In this document: in pieces, positions 3,802 to 60,804 of the stretch
Layout of the letters: every line of letters starts with the position of its first letter
Position numbering within the stretch: position 1 is the first letter of the stretch
Origin: Candidatus Cloacimonadales bacterium
GTDB lineage: Bacteria; Cloacimonadota; Cloacimonadia; Cloacimonadales; JAFGVF01
DNA: 64,000 nucleotides
Direction: 5' to 3'
NCBI GenBank assembly: GCA_963678315.1
Contig: OY782781.1
Span: 1,632,001 to 1,696,000, forward strand
Position numbers and translations under genes: made by a program
The notes under the pieces: model-generated
What the model was told of the DNA's origin: nothing
Seen by the model: the letters and a program-made list of their open reading frames with translations, nothing else
The model's database searches: none

Positions 3802-5679
3802 ATGAATTTTAAACATAAGTTTTTCTTGCCTACAACTAAGCAAGAGATGAATGCTCTTGGATGGCAAGAATTAGATATTATTATTATCTCGGGTGATGCT
3901 TATATTGATCATCCGAGTTTTTCTGCGTCTATTATCGGAAGATATTTACAGCATTTCGGATTTAAAGTAGGCATAATACCTCAGCCTAATATAGATGAAC
4001 CTGATGATTTTCTCGTAATGGGGGAACCCAAACTTTTTTGGGGTATTACTTCAGGGAATATGGATTCAATGGTAAATCATTATACAGCCCAGAAGAAACT
4101 TCGTTCAGAAGATGCTTATACTCCTGCTGGTAAAATAGGAATTAGACCAGATAGAGCCTTGATTAGATATACAAACCTTGTCAAACAAATTTCTAAAGAT
4201 ACTCCAGTAATACTAGGTGGTATAGAAGCTTCCATGCGTAGGATATCCCATTATGATTATTGGAGTGATAAGGTTAGAAATTCTATCCTTGTTGATTCTA
4301 AAGCTGATATTCTTGTTTATGGAATGGGTGAGAAGATTATTCATGAAATAGCTATTCGGCTCCTTAATGGCGATCATATTAGTACTATTTATGATGTTCC
4401 TGGAACTGCTGTAATTAGCTGGGATATTGATGAAGAAGAAGAGCATACCTTCTTACCTCCACAAAATGTGTGTAAAGTCAAAGAGAACTTCCACCAGCTC
4501 ACGAAAACCTTTCAAGAAAACTATAACTCTAAAGTAATATATCAGGATATAGGTTCTAGATATTTAAGACATAACATTCCTGCTCCAAACATGACCACAG
4601 AAGAACTTGATGAAGCTTATAGTCTCCCTTATATGAGGAACCCACATCCTAGATACAAAGGAAAATCCATTAAGGCTTGGGACCAGATAAGAGATTCTAT
4701 TACTGCTCATAGAGGTTGTGGAGGTGGTTGTAATTTCTGTGCAATTGGTTATCATCAAGGCAAAACGATTACTTCTAGAAGTGAAGATTCTATTTTAGAT
4801 GAAGTTAAAGAACTTGTTAATAGAGACTATTTTCACGGCACAATAAGTGATGTTGGTGGTCCTTCTGCAAATATGTATGGTATGAAGTGTACTTTAGAAG
4901 AGGGGCTTATTTGCAAGCGAAGTTCTTGTTTATACCCATCTATTTGCACAAAGCTAGATTGTTCTCACGATAAGTATTTAAGTCTATTAAGGAAAGTAAA
5001 GAGTATCAATAAGGTTAAGAATCTGTTTATAGCTTCAGGTATTAGATTTGACTTAGCATTGAAATCAAAGAATTTTATTAGAGAGACTGCAAAACATTAT
5101 ATTGGGGGACATCTAAAATTAGCTCCTGAACATGTCGTTCCTAAGGTTCTAAAAATAATGAACAAACCGTCAATAGATTTGTATGAAGAGTTTTCTAAGT
5201 ACTTTATGGATGCATCCCTTCAAGCAGGAAAGAAACAATCTATTATTCCATACATCATAGTAGGCCACCCAGGAACAGATTTGAATGATGCTGTTAAACT
5301 GGCTCTTTATCTAAAAAAGAATAATCTTAAGTTAGAACAAGTTCAAGAATTTTATCCGACTCCGATGACTCCGAGCACTGCTATGTATTACACTGAATTA
5401 GACTATCAAACTGGAAAAAGAGTACATGTTTCAAAAGGCAGGGAAATTCGCCTTCAAAAGGCTCTTGTTCAGTGGTATATGCCAGAGAATAAGAAATATG
5501 TTATTGAAGCTCTAAGTAAAATTGGGAAAAGTAGTCTTATCGCTAAATTCTATCAGAATGGAGCTTTATCTAATCCAAAGAAAGAGAAAACAAGCAATGC
5601 AAAGAATACTTTTAAAGACAGAAAAAATAGCAAAAAGGGTAAAAGAACTAATACTAGCAAGAATAAAGGAAGACGCTAA
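3802..5679 (+). CDS. YgiQ family radical SAM protein
   Basis: GDAYIDHPSF, GNMDSMVNHYT, CxxxCxxC (CGGGCNFC), DVGGPSANMY. Confidence 0.92.
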   Translation: MNFKHKFFLPTTKQEMNALGWQELDIIIISGDAYIDHPSFSASIIGRYLQHFGFKVGIIPQPNIDEPDDFLVMGEPKLFWGITSGNMDSMVNHYTAQKKLRSEDAYTPAGKIGIRPDRALIRYTNLVKQISKDTPVILGGIEASMRRISHYDYWSDKVRNSILVDSKADILVYGMGEKIIHEIAIRLLNGDHISTIYDVPGTAVISWDIDEEEEHTFLPPQNVCKVKENFHQLTKTFQENYNSKVIYQDIGSRYLRHNIPAPNMTTEELDEAYSLPYMRNPHPRYKGKSIKAWDQIRDSITAHRGCGGGCNFCAIGYHQGKTITSRSEDSILDEVKELVNRDYFHGTISDVGGPSANMYGMKCTLEEGLICKRSSCLYPSICTKLDCSHDKYLSLLRKVKSINKVKNLFIASGIRFDLALKSKNFIRETAKHYIGGHLKLAPEHVVPKVLKIMNKPSIDLYEEFSKYFMDASLQAGKKQSIIPYIIVGHPGTDLNDAVKLALYLKKNNLKLEQVQEFYPTPMTPSTAMYYTELDYQTGKRVHVSKGREIRLQKALVQWYMPENKKYVIEALSKIGKSSLIAKFYQNGALSNPKKEKTSNAKNTFKDRKNSKKGKRTNTSKNKGRR

Positions 5680-5771
5680 ACATTCTGAACAGTAACAATC
5701 TTTATTAATTTGATACTAGCTTTTTATGTAGAAATACATCTAGATAATCAATTATTTTACTCATAAAATAC

Positions 5772-5836
5772 TAGACCCTTACTTGCCTCTTTGAAAAAAA
5801 GCCGATTTTTCAAGGAGACCCTTAAGTTAGGAGTTA
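5772..5836 (+). repeat. 65-bp dispersed hairpin element, copy 1
   Basis: Matches the reverse complement of 18848-18912 at 61 of 65 positions. Internal stem CTC(T/C)TTGAAAAA...TTTTTCAAGGAG. Confidence 0.85.
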
Positions 5837-5983
5837 GAAGTGAGGATTTAGAAGTTAGATGGAGAATAAGAATACTGATTTATAACAAAGATTCATTAAA
5901 TGCTAAGATTGAATTTGAAAAAAGATTGACATGTAATAGCTTCAGTATTGAATTAGAATCAATATAAATGGAGTTTAGCAAAG

Positions 5984-8900
5984 ATGAATATAAAAAGAGT
6001 ACTTATTGTTGTCATATTGTTGTATAGCTATTGTTATGCCTCAATAAGTAGTCATATTCAACTCACAGGCCAAGAGACTAATTGGGTTGCTGAAAATCAT
6101 AAAGTAAGAGTATGTGTGCTTAATTGGCCTCCTTATGAATCAAATATTCAAGGACTTGGTGGTATCTCTGTTGATATTATTAGAAAAATCTTTAACGAAA
6201 ATAAGATTGACTATGAACTAGTTTCTAGTGGCGATTTAACTTGGACTGAATTATTGGAAGATATTAAGTTAAAAAAGAACTTTGATTTAATTTTAACTGT
6301 GCAAGATTTACCTGAACGTCGTGAATATCTTAATTTTACCAATCCACATCTCAGATTAAAATCAGTTATCTTCACTAATAAGAAATCAACACATATCAAT
6401 AGTATAGAGGATCTTTTTGGTAAGACTATTTACGTTGCTAAAAATTATGGTATAACCAATAAGATAAGAAAGAAATATCCACAGATTAAATTACATGAAA
6501 TAGACAACAATAGAATTGACGAAACTTGCTTGTCTGCTGTAAATTCAGGTGTAGCGTTAGCATATATTGTCGATGAAAGAGTAGGACTTAATTTTATCCA
6601 AAAACTTAGACTAAAGGATATGAGAGTTTTAGCTTCTAAACCATTTGAATACACAGGTTATAGTATGGGGATTCGCAATGATTGGCCTGAATTAGCAAGT
6701 ATCATTAATAAATCATTAAAGCTAATACCTGATTCTGAAAAGAATGAGATTCTCAATGAATGGATTACGATTAAGTATGATTATGGAATAAGTATTTATC
6801 AGATTTTCAAGATTATTTTACTAGCAGTCATTGTTGTTATAGCAGTGATTTTAGTTAACTATAGGTGGAATAGGAAACTTAAGAAAATAATAAAAGAAAA
6901 AGATGCATCAGAAACTAAGTTTAGAACAATATTCAACAATACTCCAATACCTACAGCAATAACTACTATTGATAATTTGACTTATATTGCTGTTAATGAT
7001 GGTTTTACTGACATTTTAGGCTTCACTAATGACGATGTGATTGGAAAGACTCCTGTTGAATTGGGGATAATTACAAATGAGCAAAAGTACGAGAATATTA
7101 GCAACTTAGTGAAAACAGAGTCTACAAAGAACACAATAAAAAGCTCAGTATATACAAAAGATAAGAAATTACTCCAAGGTATAATCTATTCCGAAAAAAT
7201 AATATTAGATGACAAAGAATATCTAATAACATCATTCTTAGATAATTCAGCAGAGATTGAAGCCTCAATAGAAAATCAAAGATCATTAAATTTTGCTAAT
7301 ATTGTACAAAAAGTAACAACTAAGTTGATTAATATTGATTCTAACAAGTATGAAGCAGAATTAGTGAACATGTTTAGCGAAGTTGGGAAATATCTAGAAG
7401 CCAACAGTATATACATATATGAATATGACTTTGATAACAAGATAGTAGACAATATTCTAGAATGGTATAGTAGTGATTATGAAAATCTTCAAGGAGAATG
7501 TGTATCATTAGACCTAAATAAAATTCCTGAGATAATTAAACAACATCAAATGAATGAGGCTGTTGAGTTCTATGATTATCAAAATTCAGCTCCAAAGTAT
7601 CTCCGTGATCTTTTAAATCTTCAATTAATAAAGAGCTTAGTTGCTGTTCCAATATTCAATATCGAATCAGAACTGATTGCTTTTATTGGTGCAAGTTTCT
7701 TTAACACAAAAAAGGATAGTTTTGATAGAGATAAACAAGTTTTACAGCTTTTGGCGAATATCTATTTGAATACAATATCAAAAATTCGTAAAGAAGCAGA
7801 ATTAAATAAGTTAAATGAAGAACTAATTAATAAAAGTAAGGCAGCTAACTCATTTGCAATGGCTGCCAGAAAAGCAAATAATGTAAAAACTGAATTCTTG
7901 GCTAAAATGAGTCATGAAATAAGAACTCCTATAAATAGTATGATTGGTTTTACTAAATTTGTTTTAGACACTAATATAGATGATTATCAACATAAAAATC
8001 TTACTTTAGCTCTTGAATCTAGTGAAATTTTGCTGAAGATTGTTAATGACATATTACTTCTCTCTAAAATAGAATCTAATCAAGTTGAACTAGATTATAT
8101 TTCCAGCAATATCTTTGAAATAAGTAGAGAAATTGTAGAACTATTCAGACTTGATTCAGAGAAAACAGGGGTAAGCTTATATATTGATTATGATCCTTCA
8201 ATGCCTACATATATGACTATTGATTCCTTGCATTTTAAGCAAATAGTAGGAAATTTTCTTTCTAATGCTTTTAAATTCACTAAAAATGGTTATGTTGAGT
8301 TACGATACACTTTTATTGAACTAGATGAAAACAAGGGTGAGTTGCTGGTAGAAGTTGAAGATACAGGCATTGGAATCAGGGAAGATGAAAAAGATAGAAT
8401 ATATAAATCTTTTACACAAATAGATGACACCAGTACCAGAGAATATGGTGGTACAGGATTAGGATTAAGTATTTCTAATCAACTAGCTAGTATGATGGGA
8501 GGACAACTATCTTGTGAAAGTAGCATAGGTAAAGGTTCTACTTTTAGTTTAAGAATTCCAGTTGAGTATCAAAAATCTGAAGATACTTTGAAGGTGAAAG
8601 AAAGCAAAAATATATTAATACACACAGATGAACAAAAGTCTTATGATATATTAAAAAAACATGCTGAATACAATGGTTATAATGTTCTTCCTTATACACC
8701 TCATTGTGAAAACATGAATCTTAAAACTATTGATAATATTCATGTCCTTGTGATAAACTGTAATAAAAGCAATTTGATGTGTCAGAATCTATTTTATGAT
8801 GATCTTAAGGCTAATCTAAAGAAATTTAAACTTGTTATAATGTATTATTCATCACTAAACAAAAGTGTTCTAGAAAAGAAGTTTGAAAGTGCTTTTAATC

Positions 8901-52501: not shown

Positions 52502-54298
52502 ATGATGAAAAATATACACACTCAAACAAATATAAATACTCAAGAAAAAGCTAATATGATTTGGTCTATAGCCGACATTATTAGAGGGACTTTTAAACCA
52601 CACGAATATGGTAGAGTAGTATTGCCAATGACACTTCTTAAACGATTAAATGATACTCTTCTACCTAGTAAACAAGCTGTATTAGACAAACTTGAAGAAG
52701 TAAAGAACTACGATAAAAAAGAAGGTTTTCTTACCAGAGCATCAGGTTATAACTTCTATAACATTTCTCCTTTTACTTTTGAAACACTACTTAATAATCC
52801 AGAACAGATAGAAGATAACTTCAAGGCTTTCTTAGGTGGTTTTTCCGAGAATATTCAAGATGTACTAAGTAACTTTGAGTTTAACAACATCATTAATAGA
52901 CTTCGTGGTAAAACACCAGAAGAAGATAAACTTTACTATGTGATAAAAGAGTTTAACAAACCACAAGCTTACATGGGAGCTGATAAGTTAACTGCTACCG
53001 ATATGGGCTATATCTTTGAAGAGCTGGTTAGAAAGTTCTCTGAAAGCTATAATGAAGAAGCAGGGGCTCACTTTACAGCTAGAGATATAATCTACACAAT
53101 GACAGATCTTCTGACAGCTGAAGAAAGAGATATATTCTCTAAAGATGGAGTTAATCAAACAGTCTATGATATGACTATGGGAACTTCTCAGATGCTAACC
53201 TGTATGGAAGAGAGATTGAAAGACTTTGATAGTCAGGCAGAAGTTACTGTCTATGGACAAGAGTTCAATGCTGAAACCTATGCCATTGCTAAAGCAGATA
53301 TGATTATTAGAGGAGGGAACGCTTCTAACATGAGATTTGGAGATACTCTCTCTAATGACCAATTTACTAACTTTAAATTCTCCAAAATTATCTCTAATCC
53401 TCCTTTTGGAGTAGATTGGAAAGCTCAACAAAAAGCAGTAAAAGCTGAACATGCTCTAGGTGCTAGTGGTAGATTTGCCCCTGGTTTACCTAAGATTAGT
53501 GATGGACAGATGCTCTTTACACTGAACGGTATATCCAAGCTAGATGAAGATGGTCGCATGGCTATTATTCATAATGGTTCACCCCTTTTTACAGGTGATG
53601 CAGGTTCAGGACCAAGTGAAATTAGACGCTACATCTTAGAAAATGACCTTTTAGATGCTATTGTGCAACTTCCTAATGACCTATTCTATAACACAGGAAT
53701 CACAACTTATATCTGGATTATTACCAAGAAGAAATCTACAAAAAGAATAGGCAAAGTTCAACTTATTGATGCCTCTAAGATGTTTGTTAAACGTAGGAAA
53801 TCAATCGGTAATAAACGGGTTGATATAGATAATAAGTGCCGTCAAGCTATAGTGCAAGCTTATGGTGATTTTAAAAACAAGATGTATCTCTATGATGAAC
53901 ATAGCCTTGAATCTAAAATATTTAACAATCAAGACTTTGGTTACTATAAGATTGTAGTGGAAACACCACAAGTAGATGACCAAGGTAATATAGTATTGAA
54001 GAAAGGAAAGCCCCAAGCTGATACTAATAAAAGAGATACAGAAAATGTGCCAATGCTATTAGGCGTAAATCAAGAAGATGCAATCTCAGCTTACTTTGAA
54101 AAAGAAGTAAAAGCTTATAATCCTAATGCTTGGCTAGATGAAAAGAAAACTAAGATCGGCTATGAAATACCTTTTACACGTCACTTCTATAAATATGTAG
54201 CTCCTGAAAAGTCTGACATTATAGCTAAGAGAATCAAAACCCTAGAAGCAGACTTAATGCAAAGCCTTGCTTCTCTCTTTGATAATGATGGTGAATAA
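52502..54298 (+). CDS. hsdM: Type I restriction-modification methyltransferase subunit M
   Basis: IWSIADIIRG, EAGAHFTARD, YGQE, SNPPFG, GSPLFTGDAGSG, LPNDLFYNTGI. Confidence 0.95.
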   Translation: MMKNIHTQTNINTQEKANMIWSIADIIRGTFKPHEYGRVVLPMTLLKRLNDTLLPSKQAVLDKLEEVKNYDKKEGFLTRASGYNFYNISPFTFETLLNNPEQIEDNFKAFLGGFSENIQDVLSNFEFNNIINRLRGKTPEEDKLYYVIKEFNKPQAYMGADKLTATDMGYIFEELVRKFSESYNEEAGAHFTARDIIYTMTDLLTAEERDIFSKDGVNQTVYDMTMGTSQMLTCMEERLKDFDSQAEVTVYGQEFNAETYAIAKADMIIRGGNASNMRFGDTLSNDQFTNFKFSKIISNPPFGVDWKAQQKAVKAEHALGASGRFAPGLPKISDGQMLFTLNGISKLDEDGRMAIIHNGSPLFTGDAGSGPSEIRRYILENDLLDAIVQLPNDLFYNTGITTYIWIITKKKSTKRIGKVQLIDASKMFVKRRKSIGNKRVDIDNKCRQAIVQAYGDFKNKMYLYDEHSLESKIFNNQDFGYYKIVVETPQVDDQGNIVLKKGKPQADTNKRDTENVPMLLGVNQEDAISAYFEKEVKAYNPNAWLDEKKTKIGYEIPFTRHFYKYVAPEKSDIIAKRIKTLEADLMQSLASLFDNDGE

Positions 54299-54299
54299 T

Positions 54300-55553
54300 A
54301 TGAGAAAGATGAAAGATTCAGGGGTTGAATGGATTGGGGAGATACCGGAGGAGTGGGAAGTAATATCTCAAAAGTACATTATGAGTAAAGAGAAAAAAGT
54401 ATGTAATAAATATACAAATGAAGATATTTTATCATTAACAATGAATGGAGTTATTGTTAGAGATTTAGATAACCCAAAAGGTAAAATGCCAACAACATTT
54501 AATGGTTATCAGTATGTTAGAAATGGAAATTTGTTAATGTGTTTGTTTGATATTGATGTTACACCAAGATGTATTGGTTTGATTCAAAATGAAGGTTTAA
54601 CTAGCCCAGCATATAGCCAGTTTGTAGTAAACAACAATAATGTTCCTGAGTATTACAATTACTATCTTCATATGATAGATAATGACAAAATATATTTGCA
54701 TCTTTCACGAAACCTAAGAAATTCCCTTACTGAAACGGATTTTGGTCATATTAAGACTGTTAAACCAAAGCCTGTAGAACAACAAAAAATAGCAGGCTAC
54801 TTAGACAAGAAAGTAGGGCTAATAGATGATATAATAGCCAAGACAAAAGAGTCTATCGAAGAGTATAAAATCTACAAGCAAGCTTTAATAACCGAGACAG
54901 TGACCAAGGGATTAGACCCTAATGCTAAGATGAAGGATTCTGGTATTGAGTGGATTGGAGAGATTCCTGAGGGGTGGGAGGTTGTGAAGATAAAGTATAT
55001 CTTCGAAATAGTTAAAAGAATTTCAGGTGAACTAGGTCATGATGTGTTATCTGTTACTCAATTAGGTTTAAAAATTAAGAATATTAAATCTAACGAAGGA
55101 CAACTTTCAGCAGATTATTCTAAGTATCAGTTTGTAAATAAAGGTGATTATGTAATGAATCACATGGATTTATTAACAGGGTGGGTAGATTGTTCTAATT
55201 TTTATGGAGTAACAAGTCCAGACTATAGAGTATTTAGAACTAATACAAACTCTTGCTTTAAAGAATACTTCCTCTATATCTTCCAAACCTGTTATACAAA
55301 CAAAATATTCTATGGTATTGGTAGTGGAGTAGCAAAACTAGGGAGATGGAGACTACAAACAGATAAATTTAAGAATTTCGTAGTACCTTTACCATCTTTT
55401 AAAATGCAAAAAAAGATTGTTCATTATCTTAAAGATAGAATAGATTCTATTGATAAACATATCAACCAAAAACAAAAACTTATAACAGAGTTAGAGACTT
55501 ACAAAAAGTCATTAATATATGAAGTAGTGACTGGGAAAAGAGAGATAGAGTAA
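54300..55553 (+). CDS. hsdS: Type I RM specificity subunit S
   Basis: Two conserved MKDSG(V/I)EWIGEIP repeats each followed by a TRD, EQQKIAGYLD, and KKSLIYEVVTGK. Confidence 0.95.
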   Translation: MRKMKDSGVEWIGEIPEEWEVISQKYIMSKEKKVCNKYTNEDILSLTMNGVIVRDLDNPKGKMPTTFNGYQYVRNGNLLMCLFDIDVTPRCIGLIQNEGLTSPAYSQFVVNNNNVPEYYNYYLHMIDNDKIYLHLSRNLRNSLTETDFGHIKTVKPKPVEQQKIAGYLDKKVGLIDDIIAKTKESIEEYKIYKQALITETVTKGLDPNAKMKDSGIEWIGEIPEGWEVVKIKYIFEIVKRISGELGHDVLSVTQLGLKIKNIKSNEGQLSADYSKYQFVNKGDYVMNHMDLLTGWVDCSNFYGVTSPDYRVFRTNTNSCFKEYFLYIFQTCYTNKIFYGIGSGVAKLGRWRLQTDKFKNFVVPLPSFKMQKKIVHYLKDRIDSIDKHINQKQKLITELETYKKSLIYEVVTGKREIE

Positions 55554-55568
55554 GAAAAGAGGGAATAA

Positions 55569-56133
55569 TACATCAGCTTTGCTGAAGTATAGCCACCAGA
55601 GATGGTGGCGTTCCCAGTAGGCTGGCGATCCCAGTGTACAGGCTGAGAGATTATAAAAAAAGTGTAACCTGTAAAGTCGGAGCGCCGTCATCCCTGACGG
55701 CTCACCACCAAGAGGTGGTGATTCCCTACATCAGCTTTGCTGATGTATAGCCACCAGAGATGGTGGAGTTCCCAGTAGGCTGGCGATCCCAGTAGCAGGC
55801 TGAGAGATTATAAAAAAGTGTAATCTGTAAAGTCGGAGCGCCGTCATCCTTGACGGCTCACCACCAAGAGGTGGTGATTCCCTACATCAGCTTTGCTGAT
55901 GTATAGCCACCAGAGATGGTGGCGTTCGTAGTAGGCTGGCGATCCCAGTAGCAGGCTGAGAGATTATAAAAAAGTGTAACCTGTAAAGTCGGAGCGCCGT
56001 CATCCCTGACGGCTCACCACCAAGAGGTGGTGATTCCCTACATCAGCTTTGCTGATGTATAGCCACCAGAGATGGTGGAGTTCCCAGTAGGCTGGCGATC
56101 CCAGTGAGCAGACATAGCCACCGAGAGGTGGTA
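55569..56133. repeat. Tandem array of ~156-bp multi-hairpin (REP/BIME-like) units upstream of the RAYT
   Basis: Units start at 55569, 55727, 55883 and 56039 (last one partial). Each full unit has four stem-loops. Confidence 0.95.
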
Positions 56134-56154
56134 ACAAAAAACAAAGGAAGCAAA

Positions 56155-56670
56155 ATGGATGAAACTAGAGGTTGGTATAATAGAGGTTATCTACCACATT
56201 ATGATTGTAGATATATCTATCAGTTTATAACTTTTAGATTATTTGATTCTGTTCCTAAAGATGTAATAGTACAATGGAAAGATGAATTATCTTGCAATGT
56301 TTCAGATATAGAGCAGAAGCTAATACTTGAAAAACGTATTCATAAATATGAAGATGAAGGATATGGTTGCTGTTTATTGAAAGACCAGAGAGCTTATGAT
56401 ATAATGGAGAAAACTCTTCTCTTCTATAACAATGAAAGGTATCAGTTGATAGAATATGTAATTATGCCAAATCATGTTCACGTTCTAATAAAACTTATTT
56501 CAGATGTTAGTTTAGGTACAATTGTTCATTCATGGAAGTCATTTAGTGCATCTGAGATAAACAAGAAGATGAATCGTAGTGGTAAGGTTTGGATGCGTGA
56601 ATATTTTGACAGGTTTATAAGAAATGAAGAACATTTGAATAATGTTATTAAGTATATACAGAATAATTAG
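56155..56670 (+). CDS. REP-associated tyrosine transposase (RAYT; HUH/Y1, IS200-like fold)
   Basis: RGYLPH, QFITFRLFDS, YVIMPNHVHVL (HUH), HSWKSFSA, WMREYFDRFIRNEEH, KYIQNN (catalytic Tyr). AGGA RBS before ATG 56155. Confidence 0.9.
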   Translation: MDETRGWYNRGYLPHYDCRYIYQFITFRLFDSVPKDVIVQWKDELSCNVSDIEQKLILEKRIHKYEDEGYGCCLLKDQRAYDIMEKTLLFYNNERYQLIEYVIMPNHVHVLIKLISDVSLGTIVHSWKSFSASEINKKMNRSGKVWMREYFDRFIRNEEHLNNVIKYIQNN

Positions 56671-56681
56671 ATATTGAGGGA

Positions 56682-56800
56682 TACATCAGCTTTGCTGATG
56701 TATAGCCACCAGAGATGGTGGCGTTCCCAGTAGGCAGGTATAGCCACCAAGAGGTGGTGATCTCCAGTAGGCAGGCTGACGGTAAACCACCATTCATGGT
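56682..56800. repeat. Partial copy of the same hairpin unit downstream of the RAYT
   Basis: TACATCAGCTTTGCTGATGTATAGCCACCAGAGATGGTGGCGTTCCCAGTAGGC, followed by GCCACCAAGAGGTGGTGA. Confidence 0.92.
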
Positions 56801-56821
56801 GTTTATTCAAAAAGAGGAAAT

Positions 56822-59800
56822 ATGGAATATAAAGAAAGAAGATTTGAGCAAGACATAGAGACTTACCTGTTAGAACAGGCAGGATATGTTAAAGCTAATA
56901 AGAAAGACTATGACGCTGATAAGGCTCTTGATTTAAAGACGTTGATAGGATTTATAAAAAAGACTCAGCCAGATGAGTGGAAACGCTACGAAGTTATCTA
57001 TGGTGATAATTCTAGTAAAAAGTTCTATAAACGCTTTAGCGAAGTCGTGAATGACTTTGGCTTAATACATGTCTTACGTTATGGTATTGATGATAGAGGT
57101 GTGAATTTAAGAGTCTGCTATTTTAAGCCAGAATCAACTCTGAACTCTTTAACCTTAGACAGGTATAGAGCTAATGTTATGAGCCTTGCTAGGCAGTTCT
57201 ACTATTCTACTGAGAATGCAAATTCTATTGATATGGTTCTTTCTCTGAATGGTATTCCTATTGTGGCAATGGAGTTAAAGAATCAGTTTACCGGTCAGTC
57301 TGTAGAGAATGCTAAAAAGCAATATATATATGATAGGAACCCAAGAGAGTTATGCTTCAACTTTAATAAAAGATTCTTAGTCTATTTTGCAGTAGATTTG
57401 TACCAAGTATGGATGACCACGCAACTAAAGGGTAAAGATACTTACTTCTTGCCATTTAACCAAGGTTCAGGTGGAGCAGGCAAAGTAGGAGGATTAGGCA
57501 ATCCTGAAAACCCTGATGGTTATAACACTGCCTATCTGTGGCAAAAGGTTTTGAGAAAAGATTCTCTCATGAATATAATACAGCGATTCTTACACTTGGA
57601 AGTAACAAAAAGCAAAGAGATTAAGAATGGTAAGACTAGGAATATTACTAAGAAGACTATTATCTTCCCTAGATACCATCAACTTGATGTTGTAACGAAG
57701 TTAATTTCTCATGTTCAAGAGAATGGAGCTGGTAAGAACTACTTGATACAGCATTCGGCTGGTTCAGGTAAATCAAATTCAATAGCTTGGACAGCCTATA
57801 GGCTCTCTTCTCTCCATGATGATAACAACAACAATATCTTTACTTCTGTGATAATTGTTACTGATAGACGAGTATTAGACAGTCAGCTACAAGGTGTAAT
57901 TGCTTCCTTTGACCATAGAAGAGGGGTTATTGAAACTATTGATGATAAGAAGAACTCACAAGACTTGAAAAATGCTATTAATGCTGGAGTAAAGATTATA
58001 GTAACAACCTTGCAAAAGTTTCCTGTTATCTTTGATGAAGTGGAAAATACTTCAGGCAAGAGATTTGCTGTAATAGTAGATGAAGCACACAGTTCTCAGA
58101 CAGGTACTTCTGCTCAAAAGCTTAAAACTGCTTTAGCTGATAATGACCAAGCTTTAGAGGAGTTTGCTCAATTTGAAAATACTGAAGAGTCTAATAGAGC
58201 AGACTTTGAAGATAAATTAATCGAAGAACTACAATCACACGGTAAACATAGGAACTTATCCTTCTTTGCTTTCACTGCCACACCTAAAGAGAAAACTCTA
58301 GAGATGTTTGGCCAAGAACAGAATGATGGTACATTTCATCCTTTCCATATCTACTCAATGAAACAGGCTATTGAAGAAGGTTTTATACATGATGTCCTAG
58401 CTCACTACATGACCTACAATACCTGCTTTAAGATTGCTAAAGAAATAAGTGACAATCCAGAACTACCTGAAAGTGAAGCCACCAAGGCAATTAAAAGATA
58501 TCAATCACTACACCCATATAACCTACAGCAAAAAACTGCTGTAATGGTTGAGTATTTCAGAGATGTTACTCGCAAGAAGATAGGTGGAAAGGCTAAAGCA
58601 ATGCTTGTTACAGCATCTAGGTTACATGCAGTACGTTATTATCATGAATTTAAGAGATATATAGAATACAAAAAATATAATAATGTTGATGTGTTAGTAG
58701 CCTTCTCTGGAACCGTAAAAGATGGTGATAATGAGTACACAGAAGTAGGATTAAACATAAAGAAAGATGGTTCTAAGGTAAGTGAAAAGCAGTTAAAAGA
58801 GACTTTCCATGGTCCTGAATTTAATATTCTTATAGTAGCTGAAAAGTACCAAACAGGTTTTGATGAACCACTTCTACATACTATGTTTGTAGATAAAAAG
58901 CTATCAGGTGTGAAAGCAGTTCAAACTCTTTCAAGACTTAATAGAACTAGATCTGGCAAGACCGAAACTTTCGTAATGGACTTTGTTAATGAGGCAGATG
59001 ATATTAGAAACTCATTCACTCCATTCTATAAAGAGACTGTACTTGATGAAGAGATTAATGTTAATCTTATCTATAATACTAAGATTCTTATCAGAGAATT
59101 TTATTTATATTCTCAAGATGATATAGAGCAATTCAACATCATTTATTATAGCAAGAAACAGTCTGAGCATGACTTAGGAAAATTAGCAAGTCAGTTCACA
59201 AGACTAATAAAACAATATCTTGAGCTAGATGCTGAAGAACAGTTTAAGTTTAAGAAAGCTGTACGTAACTTTGTGAAATGGTATGCTTATATTACCCAGA
59301 TAACTAGACTATTTGATAAAGAGCTTCACAAGGAATATAATTATCTGAAATATCTAGCAAAAGTATTACCTAATAAGTCTACAGAGAAAGTAGATCTTGA
59401 AGATAAGATAAAATTAGAATACTATCGTTTGGATAAAAGCTTTGAAGGGGATATACAACTTGAAGAAGAAAATGAGAATGGACTGCTAGTAAATCCAAAG
59501 ACCTTAAATGTAGATAAACCAAAAGATCCTAAAGATGAACTCTTAGATGTTATTATTAATCACATTAATGACCGATTTAGTGGTATCTTTGATGAAGGTG
59601 ATAAAGTAATAGTTGAGACTCTCTTTAATAAGATTCTTGAGCAAAACAGTAAACTTAAGCGTTATGCTAAAAAACATAATCCCGAAATATTTAATACTAA
59701 ACTTGAAGAAGTGTTTGAGAGTGCAGCCCACTCTTGCTATGCTGAACAGATGGGAGCATTTAAGAAACTATTCGAGAATGCTGAATTCTATAATGCTATT

Positions 59801-59848
59801 ATGAGTGCTATTGGTTCTGCTGCCTATAGTGTTTTAGGAAGGGAGTGA
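56822..59848 (+). CDS. hsdR: Type I restriction endonuclease subunit R
   Basis: IDMVLSLNGIPIVAMELKN nuclease motif, QHSAGSGKS, DEAH, FTATPK, TGFDEP, VQTLSRLNR. Confidence 0.96.
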   Translation: MEYKERRFEQDIETYLLEQAGYVKANKKDYDADKALDLKTLIGFIKKTQPDEWKRYEVIYGDNSSKKFYKRFSEVVNDFGLIHVLRYGIDDRGVNLRVCYFKPESTLNSLTLDRYRANVMSLARQFYYSTENANSIDMVLSLNGIPIVAMELKNQFTGQSVENAKKQYIYDRNPRELCFNFNKRFLVYFAVDLYQVWMTTQLKGKDTYFLPFNQGSGGAGKVGGLGNPENPDGYNTAYLWQKVLRKDSLMNIIQRFLHLEVTKSKEIKNGKTRNITKKTIIFPRYHQLDVVTKLISHVQENGAGKNYLIQHSAGSGKSNSIAWTAYRLSSLHDDNNNNIFTSVIIVTDRRVLDSQLQGVIASFDHRRGVIETIDDKKNSQDLKNAINAGVKIIVTTLQKFPVIFDEVENTSGKRFAVIVDEAHSSQTGTSAQKLKTALADNDQALEEFAQFENTEESNRADFEDKLIEELQSHGKHRNLSFFAFTATPKEKTLEMFGQEQNDGTFHPFHIYSMKQAIEEGFIHDVLAHYMTYNTCFKIAKEISDNPELPESEATKAIKRYQSLHPYNLQQKTAVMVEYFRDVTRKKIGGKAKAMLVTASRLHAVRYYHEFKRYIEYKKYNNVDVLVAFSGTVKDGDNEYTEVGLNIKKDGSKVSEKQLKETFHGPEFNILIVAEKYQTGFDEPLLHTMFVDKKLSGVKAVQTLSRLNRTRSGKTETFVMDFVNEADDIRNSFTPFYKETVLDEEINVNLIYNTKILIREFYLYSQDDIEQFNIIYYSKKQSEHDLGKLASQFTRLIKQYLELDAEEQFKFKKAVRNFVKWYAYITQITRLFDKELHKEYNYLKYLAKVLPNKSTEKVDLEDKIKLEYYRLDKSFEGDIQLEEENENGLLVNPKTLNVDKPKDPKDELLDVIINHINDRFSGIFDEGDKVIVETLFNKILEQNSKLKRYAKKHNPEIFNTKLEEVFESAAHSCYAEQMGAFKKLFENAEFYNAIMSAIGSAAYSVLGRE

Positions 59849-59958: not shown

Positions 59959-60804
59959 TTAATAAAATTTATAGGTGTAGCAAATCCTAATATCGGTTGC
60001 TTGAAGTCCTTTATCTCCATGAGATAATTTGAATTCAAATATCTGATTACGGTTAGGTAAGTCTTTTTCACTGCCTTCAGGTAAATGTGAAGAGTGGAAG
60101 AAGATAGATTTATAAGGAGAATTTTCCTTACGAGAATCTGTTATCCAAAGTCCGTTATTAATTGAATCTAATAATCTAAAAAAGCCAAACTTTTTATCTT
60201 TATTATAAGTATAACAAACACCACGAACCCAAGAGCCTTCTTCACCCCAAGGAATATTATTTAATGGGTGACCGTATTCATCTTGTACTGGTAATAAATC
60301 TGGAACTAAATAACCTGAAAAGAAAATATCTGATTCTGTTTTTAATAAATGTGAAACGTTTCTAAAACCAAGTACATCAACTCGGCATCCTTTGTTTTGT
60401 AATGCTCTAATAACTTGTAAAAAATCACCATCTCCAGTAACTAATAATACATAATCTAATCTGTCTGATTGGAGAAGGGCATCAACTGCAAGATCAAGAT
60501 CTGCGTTGGCTTTAGCATATCTATGACCAGATTCATCGAAGAAAAACCTTACTTTTTTCACAATAACCTTATAGCCATAATCTCTAAGATTTGCGTGGAA
60601 ATTAAGTGAATGTCTTTGATATTCCTGATCTATTTTAGCTCTTTCTTCATCATAAGCAAGATAAGCATTTAATCTAACTGCAATGCCATTATTTCTACAT
60701 GCGAATTCCCTAAGTACATCATAAGCAATACCATATCCACCATTCTGGGCGATATTAGCTACATCAATGTAAATTCCAACCTTCTGATAGCCTGTTTTTT
60801 CCAT
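59959..60804 (-). CDS. NYN (LabA/DUF88, PIN-like) domain protein with C-terminal cold-shock/OB domain
   Basis: IYIDVANI, ADLDLAVD, LVTGDGDF, and C-terminal KKFGF...IFFHSS...GDKGLQATDI. Confidence 0.85.
   Translation of the reverse strand: MEKTGYQKVGIYIDVANIAQNGGYGIAYDVLREFACRNNGIAVRLNAYLAYDEERAKIDQEYQRHSLNFHANLRDYGYKVIVKKVRFFFDESGHRYAKANADLDLAVDALLQSDRLDYVLLVTGDGDFLQVIRALQNKGCRVDVLGFRNVSHLLKTESDIFFSGYLVPDLLPVQDEYGHPLNNIPWGEEGSWVRGVCYTYNKDKKFGFFRLLDSINNGLWITDSRKENSPYKSIFFHSSHLPEGSEKDLPNRNQIFEFKLSHGDKGLQATDIRICYTYKFY

Follow-up and report, generated by a model that had tools for sequence, protein, structure and literature searches.

What is a transposase-type gene with hairpin repeats of its own doing in the middle of a restriction-modification (RM) operon? 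The question was raised by a stretch of 64,000 nucleotides from the genome of Candidatus Cloacimonadales bacterium (assembly GCA_963678315.1, contig OY782781.1, positions 1,632,001 to 1,696,000 of the forward strand; hereafter the window), in which a gene for a REP-associated tyrosine transposase (RAYT; REP, repetitive extragenic palindrome) stands between the hsdS and hsdR genes of a type I system. The original prediction, made from the sequence alone, had suggested that the arrangement may be a functional RAYT-RM module. The answer that we prefer, with a probability of roughly 0.55, is that of a selfish RAYT-REP cassette for which restriction loci are the preferred places to settle or survive. 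The operon and its guest are laid out as follows:

52502..54298, + strand: hsdM, type I methyltransferase subunit, 598 aa, intact (Pfam HsdM_N and N6_Mtase; PADLOC MTase_I, 733 bits)
54267..55553, + strand: hsdS, specificity subunit with two target-recognition domains (TRDs), 428 aa as the longest open reading frame (ORF), start uncertain (Pfam Methylase_S)
55569..56111, + strand: tandem array of a 156-bp composite unit (TRF period 156, 3.5 copies, 95% matches; units read to 56105)
56155..56670, + strand: gene for a RAYT-type Y1 HUH nuclease/transposase, 171 aa (Pfam Y1_Tnp, E 1.2e-12)
56682..56735, + strand: partial unit (unit positions 1-54), in the orientation of the upstream array (blastn, 98% identity)
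56822..59848, + strand: hsdR, restriction/translocase subunit, 1008 aa, intact (Pfam HSDR_N, SWI2_SNF2, ResIII and T1R_D3; PADLOC REase_I, 132 bits)

The insertion in the operon

ORF and Pfam analyses confirmed what had been read from the sequence: the gene encodes a RAYT-type Y1 HUH protein, hairpin units of the same orientation lie on both of its sides, and the type I operon around it is intact, with all four genes co-directional in the order hsdM, hsdS, array, RAYT, partial unit, hsdR. The operon has the marks of a type I system, namely an HsdM with HsdM_N and N6 methyltransferase (MTase) domains, a two-TRD HsdS (the PADLOC Specificity_I match, 307 bits, covers residues 7-427), and an HsdR with a nuclease N-domain and an SF2 motor, all in one orientation; the NCBIfam equivalog cut-offs were not reached. 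The gap between hsdS and hsdR measures 1,268 bp, and the operon interior held no further ORF of at least 50 aa with a family match. Also as predicted, no TnpB-type match was found among ten ORFs scanned at 48.8-62.7 kb.

The history of the insertion could be read from orthologous hsdMSR operons in two other genera of the same family (genomes G003 and G002), whose HsdM proteins are 67-68% identical to that of the window at the amino acid level and whose HsdR proteins are 64-65% identical over residues 1-1005. In G003 and at G002:C2, hsdS and hsdR are separated by 3 bp with no insert, and at G002:C4 the coordinates imply the same 3-bp gap; the hsd genes of G006 lie on separate small contigs that are uninformative for the junction. 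When the junctions were aligned, the window hsdS was seen to end at the homologous place, and its hsdR to start two or three codons later than in the insert-free orthologs. The comparison indicates that the cassette is a derived, precise and frame-sparing insertion into a former 3-bp hsdS-hsdR junction, and, as that junction is found in orthologs of two genera, that the RM system runs without the cassette. The original prediction had counted close relatives with the same hsdMSR and no insert among the signs of a neutral insertion; G003 and G002 answer to this, though as genomes of other genera. The G003 orthologs of the genes downstream of the window operon lie about 240 kb from the G003 hsdMSR, a separation that marks the operon as accessory and non-syntenic.

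The window is not alone in its arrangement. A scan of 151 Cloacimonadota genomes produced 172 RAYT matches in 82 genomes (150 of the matches listed) and HsdR-family matches in 92 of the 151 (38 of them unlisted). Among the matches listed, two RAYTs stood directly upstream of hsdR, both in hsdS|hsdR gaps: the window copy and a copy in G004, a member of another genus, with the order hsdM-hsdS-[hairpin unit]-RAYT-[same unit]-hsdR and same-strand flanks. The G004 RM system is not orthologous to that of the window (HsdR 23% and HsdM 28% identity), and its RAYT is sister to another copy in the G004 genome (support 0.94), so that the two hsdS|hsdR insertions look independent; the same kind of cassette appears to have entered the junction of a non-orthologous type I operon a second time. 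By our estimate, which takes each genome to have some 2,000-2,500 intergenic gaps and between one and three type I operons, chance would yield about 0.1-0.2 hsdS|hsdR cases among the 172, with the proviso that one of the two cases prompted the search.

The RAYT protein and its paralogs

Of the residues expected of a Y1 enzyme, H107-V-H109 (the HUH motif) and Tyr167 are invariant in an alignment of the window RAYT with its paralogs and two IS200-type TnpA proteins of the host genome. The protein has a conserved N-terminal motif (RGYLPH...QFITFRL) and no C-terminal extension. The best curated family was NCBIfam REP_Tyr_transpos (NF047646), at 66.1 bits against a cut-off of 80 and with an alignment covering only residues 89-171; the IS200 model NF033573 reached 33.3 bits against a cut-off of 55. 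Searched with an AlphaFold model (pLDDT 83) at E <= 0.001, the Protein Data Bank (PDB) returned Y1 transposases for 30 of 30 matches (ISDra2, IS200, IS608, and TnpA_REP 4er8 at rank 21), a comparison of folds that cannot tell IS200-type from REP-type Y1 enzymes; a PDB sequence search with the window RAYT did not retrieve 4er8. Homologs in public sources are named 'REP element-mobilizing transposase RayT' or 'REP-associated tyrosine transposase', and the closest public relatives are from metagenome-assembled genomes of Cloacimonadota.

Including the window copy (P0001), the host genome, a single contig of 2,988,751 bp and 32.8% GC, contains six RAYT genes at 47-61% identity to one another, and each of the six has flank hairpins of its own, inverted at L007, L009 and L010 and in same-strand composite units at L008, L011 and the RM copy. 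A FastTree phylogeny was built from 208 RAYT domains (E <= 1e-10, at least 140 profile positions; 215 were kept and seven identical duplicates removed). In it P0001 grouped with L007, L008 and L010 (support 0.945), and with L009 added the support was 0.91; nested as it is among copies of the same genome, the RM copy is the product of a lineage-specific expansion. The RM copy has no promoter-like box at its RAYT gene, unlike the paralogs L007 and L010, and is thus probably transcribed by read-through from the hsdM promoter.

Four of the six paralogs lie within about 20 kb around dnaA (G000:C1:1104000-1127000; L013, L014). Two genuine IS200-type TnpA genes (150 and 152 aa) are in the same cluster, as is an IS21-like pair (integrase and IstB). 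The cumulative GC skew of the host genome does not have its minimum at dnaA (1.105 Mb) but near 0.73 Mb. One paralog stands 80 bp downstream of, and co-directional with, a gene for a large SNF2 helicase (L015:4669-8486 = G000:C1:792669-796486) that matches DpdE/ZorD-type models at 431 bits. A helicase is also the neighbour of one of the 19 closest Cloacimonadota homologs of P0001 (G122, L170:62-3490), which lies directly 3' of a co-directional SNF2 gene matching DrmD at 648 bits.

The hairpin array

The array was borne out in the form predicted, as tandem GC-rich hairpin units before the RAYT gene and a partial unit after it, by TRF, blastn, base composition and folding alike. Full units begin at 55569, 55727 and 55883, followed by the first 67 nt of a fourth, and each is a string of REP-type stem-loops, several of which then carry the conserved tail G[AT]TCCCAGT(AG). 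GC content is 0.49-0.535 in the array against 0.25-0.41 in its surroundings. A single unit forms five to seven hairpins on folding (-35.6 kcal/mol, z = -6.9; none of 200 shuffles as good), the downstream flank of the RAYT gene folds with z = -5.0, and the hairpin words of the unit, for which shuffles predict 0 occurrences, are found 5 and 9 times in the window. A direct repeat of 54 nt brackets the gene, with four copies upstream and one downstream, all on the + strand. An Rfam scan of 55000-57200 at E <= 1 gave a chance lncRNA match only, and no known RNA family in the array. Three smaller features complete the region:

56114..56135, + strand: degenerate REP stem-loop ATAGCCACCGAGAGGTGGTAAC, directly 5' of the RAYT ribosome-binding site (read from the sequence)
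56739..56771, + strand: second REP variant, with stem CACCACC/GGTGGTG and tail ATCTCCAGTAGG (from the sequence; TRF also reports 56700-56775, period 37, for this region)
56788..56808, + strand: short hairpin and T-rich tract, terminator-like, 14 nt 5' of the hsdR start (consensus scan)

Between the last of these and the hsdR start is a new ribosome-binding site, AAAGAGG. As terminator-like and promoter-like sites were no commoner in the consensus scan than in shuffled sequence, they are given here as anatomy only.

The relation of the array to the rest of the genome is a matter of tails and stems. The tail CG[AT]TCCCAGT has 203 copies in the genome, in many intergenic regions and behind a variety of mutually compensating stems; of the exact stem word TAGCCACCAGAGATGGTGG there are five genome matches, all five at the RM-operon locus, and by blastn the whole 156-bp unit is found nowhere else in the genome. 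With its tail common to a genome-wide family and its stem local, the array is a private, undispersed variant within the REP system of the genome. On either side of the RAYT gene every tail lies on the + strand, so the flanks are direct rather than inverted in the manner of a REPIN. In 8 of 10 local tails the tetranucleotide GTAG is present (...CCCAGTAG...), placed 3' of its stem and hence 5' of the next one; in RAYT REPs, GT[AG]G is at the 5' foot. Genome-wide, the tail has a strand bias that reverses from one replichore to the other: in one, minus copies outnumber plus copies 81 to 37, and in the second, plus copies outnumber minus copies 53 to 32. The bias is still about 2:1 once clusters are collapsed, as expected of elements acting on the lagging-strand template. 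Many tail copies are part of a dispersed element of about 65 nt that begins TACAAATTCACTTATCAC.

Related strains

Contigs from three sequencing runs of two other studies (X2 from study P2; X5 and X6 from study P3) aligned to 53000-59000 at 90-99% identity. All three keep hsdM, the RAYT gene and hsdR, and one X2 contig spans hsdM and hsdS and reaches the first unit of the array. Over 560-660 letters the RAYT piece has 6-8 differences (1.1-1.2%), compared with 2-9% for the pieces of hsdM and hsdR. The hsdS gene of X2 is another matter: its first TRD has been replaced by 471 other letters between breakpoints 54323/54777, and its second (54995/55460) is of the same length and diverged (X5 and X6 gave almost no cover of the TRD regions). 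As both TRDs differ in a strain that is 95-99% identical, recognition specificity differs between close strains.

These swaps bear on the original suggestion that RAYT nicking, together with the same-orientation units, drives excision, amplification or exchange of hsdS alleles beside the array. The differences between related strains in both TRDs speak for the suggestion, as does the variation of internal array joints between runs. The breakpoints, however, are in conserved parts of hsdS, about 90 nt or more before the array and none within it, as in ordinary TRD shuffling, and the variable joints come from short-read contigs of a repeat, in which they may be artefacts of collapse. Array-driven exchange was rejected on the position of the breakpoints, and we consider it scarcely credible. 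For the same reason of possible repeat collapse in short-read contigs, the joints 55560>55883, 55636>55951 and 55722/55878>56138 were not used as evidence of a copy-number change of the array between strains.

RAYT domains in RM genes of other phyla

Outside the Cloacimonadota, RAYT domains were found not only beside restriction genes but inside them. A metagenome scan with P0001 alone returned no relative; with alignment A2 it returned 58 loci. At six orthologous Verrucomicrobiota loci a whole RAYT domain is in frame inside a bona fide HsdR, between the SWI2_SNF2 lobe and T1R_D3, with the HUH motif and the tyrosine intact and with translated repeats ('KVAGASSS') on either side. A search for long RAYT-containing proteins gave 449 hits at E <= 1e-5, of which 120 were listed; their second domains were:

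DUF1156 methylases (HmaB): 59
SpoU: 22
none: 18
other: 8
N6_N4 MTases (type III MTase): 5
MmeI-like type IIG enzymes: 5
HsdM: 1
D12 MTase: 1
SNF2 helicase (HmaA-type): 1

DNA methylases or RM enzymes thus make up 71 of the 120 listed (59+5+5+1+1), and PADLOC identified representative fusions as HmaB, type III MTase, type IIG REase-MTase, type I MTase and HmaA. By the tree the fusions reduce to a limited number of events, including one large HmaB clade and one SpoU clade, and DNA-modification defence genes account for about half of the distinct families of fusion host.

Neighbourhood enrichment, which the original prediction had proposed as a check, was found in part. At the 71 RAYT loci covered in other phyla, RM-type matches (PADLOC, E <= 1e-40) were made by 5 of the 106 ORFs that adjoin or contain the RAYT, against 0 of 149 ORFs drawn at random at least 4 kb away at the same loci; among the 19 closest homologs in Cloacimonadota, none is in a type I operon. 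Related sequences and spurious ORFs in GC-rich DNA are among those counted, so the statistics give no more than an indication. Two PADLOC 'Specificity_I' calls were dropped, one beside the RAYT of L030, where Pfam shows a Bro-N/HepT-like protein and not HsdS, and one beside the RAYT of L112, by analogy, as it had matched the same two PADLOC models. Over these comparisons of sequence, relatives of the window RAYT lie in or beside restriction genes more often than chance would give, and the association with restriction and methylase genes is real but weak per copy.

Explanations of the association

A selfish cassette with a preference for restriction loci would have come to the window operon by copying within the genome via single-stranded DNA in the IS200/IS605 manner, a route suggested by the same-strand end hairpins, which are the architecture of those elements. 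Copies that entered RM or defence loci and spared the reading frames would have been preferentially kept, plausibly because such loci tolerate insertions at gene or domain boundaries, because imprecise loss would unbalance restriction against methylation, or because mobile RM operons carry the cassette onward. With hsdR left behind an extra gene and many hairpins, HsdR may be lowered or delayed as a side effect, and an effect of the cassette on HsdR dosage is plausible from the anatomy. A number of observations weigh against this explanation. The other five paralogs of the host genome lie outside RM operons, as do all of the 19 closest Cloacimonadota homologs, whose neighbours are mostly housekeeping genes (valS in three syntenic cases, hrcA/grpE, sulfatase-modifying enzymes, type IX secretion system proteins, SHMT, Lon and others); per copy, then, there is little pull toward RM loci. 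Identity to the nearest paralog is no higher than 61%, and the lack of a near-identical copy leaves no sign of recent mobility; nor was an excised or empty-site joint found in the contigs of the three runs, which drop rare variants. The five RM-type neighbours in other phyla reduce to three host families (HsdR, type IIG and HmaB), and the enrichment counts lack phylogenetic independence, since one lineage accounts for all six HsdR fusions and one large clade for most HmaB fusions. Finally, hitchhiking and addiction are inference only, and a selected function, too, could account for the strong conservation of the RAYT and for two precise insertions at one and the same junction.

One such function would be regulatory. 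The array and the extra gene would uncouple hsdR from hsdMS, to which it was formerly coupled translationally via the 3-bp gap, and HsdR would be made later than the methylase, or at a lower level, protecting the host when a mobile RM operon enters a new cell. Two independent insertions exactly at the hsdS|hsdR junction, the hairpin and T tract ahead of hsdR with a rebuilt ribosome-binding site behind them, and the retention of the cassette in strains from three studies all accord with such an insert; we nevertheless hold it to be unlikely, for the orthologous operons of two genera do without a cassette, the terminator-like and promoter-like sites occur only at shuffled frequency, and uncoupling cannot explain the in-frame inserts in HsdR, HmaB and type IIG enzymes. 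Those fusions, together with the second hsdS|hsdR insertion in G004 and the RM-type share of adjacent as opposed to distal ORFs, also argue against a neutral insertion of one of six cassettes that landed here by chance and has no preference for RM genes, which is improbable even though five of six paralogs and all 19 closest homologs sit elsewhere and some 200 REP-type hairpins with the shared tail are scattered over many intergenic regions of the genome. More improbable still is a working defence component, in which a single-strand-nicking HUH domain would cooperate with the HsdR translocase, for example against single-stranded DNA phages and plasmids or on DNA unwound by HsdR. It could draw on the adjacency of the genes in the window and in G004, on a fusion between the two RecA lobes of HsdR kept in six genomes with the HUH motif and tyrosine intact, and on a RAYT gene more conserved than the hsd genes. 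Yet translated REP repeats lie on both sides of the fused domain, which marks it as an inserted cassette rather than a designed linker, the same domain is in frame in CarB, SpoU, CbiG and HAD proteins, insert-free orthologs exist, and P0001 matched no PADLOC model.

Of the module originally proposed, the link itself has stood, in that it is not a one-off (G004 and the in-frame RM fusions attest to that); the specific mechanisms offered for it are not supported, with the insert-free orthologs in G003 and G002, the lack of a type I operon around any of the 19 closest Cloacimonadota homologs, the position of the hsdS breakpoints and the confinement of the exact hairpin unit to one locus counting against them. 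A bolder version can be framed, in which cassettes of this clade would be specialists in colonising DNA-modification defence genes (type I, IIG and III RM, Hma, and DISARM-like helicases) and the cassette would be a seamless excisable insert that tunes or toggles restriction, here through the amount of HsdR. A seamless insert is conceivable because a Y1 enzyme can cut and rejoin single strands scarlessly. We regard this as speculative and rather doubtful; if true, it would amount to a RAYT-based layer of control or phase variation for RM systems, and would supply the missing host function of RAYTs.

Comparison with known systems

Guests in type I operons have precedent. In the E. coli prr locus, hsdM-hsdS-prrC-hsdR, the anticodon nuclease PrrC is held in check by the RM proteins; the operon in the window, too, is otherwise intact and has an unrelated gene, running in the same direction, between hsdS and hsdR, and it differs in that the guest is a transposase-type gene with its own repeats. 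Mosaic clusters of hairpin repeats are also familiar, as the BIMEs (bacterial interspersed mosaic elements) of enterobacteria and the neisserial NIMEs (intergenic mosaic elements), and the RPEs (palindromic elements) of Rickettsia are inserted in frame. The window array shares with these its short hairpin modules, and the repeats of RAYT relatives in other phyla are translated in frame; it differs in being a homogeneous 156-bp tandem that is tied to one RAYT gene, intergenic and untranslated. Nearer to the protein are the IS200/IS605 elements (IS608, ISDra2 and IS200 TnpA; PDB 2vju, 2xm3, 2f4f), which gave the best PDB sequence and fold matches of the window RAYT and resemble the cassette in having a Y1 gene with same-strand hairpins at both ends and in precise insertion with the flanking ORFs intact. 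The window RAYT, in contrast to these, has no near-identical copies, falls below the IS200 model cut-off and has no TnpB, and on its upstream side a 3.5-copy array takes the place of a single end.

For RAYT-REP systems, or REPtrons, the comparison set consisted of E. coli TnpA_REP/YafM (PDB 4er8) and the RAYT groups of Bertels et al. 2017 (PMC5581495). The window agrees with them in a Y1 HUH protein with its own flank hairpins and a fold that matches 4er8. It departs from them in flanking units that are direct and not inverted and that form a 156-bp composite tandem array, in an exact unit found nowhere else in the genome, in six diverged paralogs instead of one copy, in a protein below the NCBIfam cut-off, and in its place inside an RM operon. 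TnpA-Y1 subclass 2.4 (class 2), as the main text of Quentin et al. 2018 (PMC6006769) describes it, has a conserved N-terminal motif, no C-terminal extension and REPs in frame in genes; the window RAYT is like it in the first two traits and its relatives in the third, a likeness by description only, and its HuH-Y distance is about 58 aa against a median of 88 in that text.

RAYT-REP cassettes, REPs in frame and foreign genes within type I operons were each known before; new are their combination, the array of direct tandem repeats, the expansion to six paralogs and the repeated entry into hsdS|hsdR. The main text of Quentin et al. 2018, taken without its supplements, contains none of the words 'restriction', 'methylase' and 'methyltransferase', 'restriction' occurs in Bertels et al. 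2017 in the reference list only, and full-text literature searches, one result set of which was covered only in part and by title, turned up no published link between RAYTs and RM genes. RAYTs have been seen as domesticated, mostly single-copy and vertically inherited transposases of unknown host benefit (Bertels et al. 2017). From that picture the window RAYT departs by having multiplied in one genome and, it seems, by its kind having entered the same junction of unrelated type I operons twice, and its relatives, which stand in frame in restriction and methylase genes of different phyla, depart further. Should the link be selective, it would offer a concrete setting for RAYT function, or for the spread of the element from genome to genome on mobile, addictive RM cassettes; should it reflect tolerance alone, RM genes would be a preferred refuge for hairpin-borne cassettes. 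In either case 'transposase-fused' HsdR and HmaB proteins carry a guest, a point to be kept in mind in annotation.

Neighbouring genes and other observations

RAYT domains were met in further settings. One is in frame inside the large chain of carbamoyl-phosphate synthase in Akkermansiaceae (L055:8-3292), and on two Verrucomicrobiota contigs a RAYT joins ADH-type and GFO/IDH-type dehydrogenase frames (L051:8660-11671, L060:7961-10891). At L137 a RAYT lies between a mad3-like gene and a PD-T4-6/mad6-like kinase gene. On an Opitutales contig, 2.5 kb downstream of an HsdR-RAYT fusion, is a gene for a 1242-aa SIR2-domain protein with a full-length PADLOC Dsr2 match (L043:8657-12385; 1523 bits), which makes of this locus a defence island.

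A second kind of hairpin-borne nuclease cassette came to light in a type I HsdR of G003 (1312 aa; L109 = G003:C1:2829001-2840000, ORF 3983-7918), where a DUF559 endonuclease domain (residues 387-489, E 6e-26) is in frame between HSDR_N and the SF2 motor and is bracketed by GC-rich hairpin repeats translated as the peptides 'NSPPEEGW' and 'TPPREGN'. The ortholog in the host genome of the window (C1:83836-86091) has 1092 aa, and G010:C106 gives the same split match.

On the 3' side of the window hsdR the neighbour is convergent (59959-60804, - strand) and encodes an NYN-domain protein with a weak cold-shock-domain match and no PADLOC match; the gene is kept at 76% nucleotide identity in three relatives that have no RM operon at that place.

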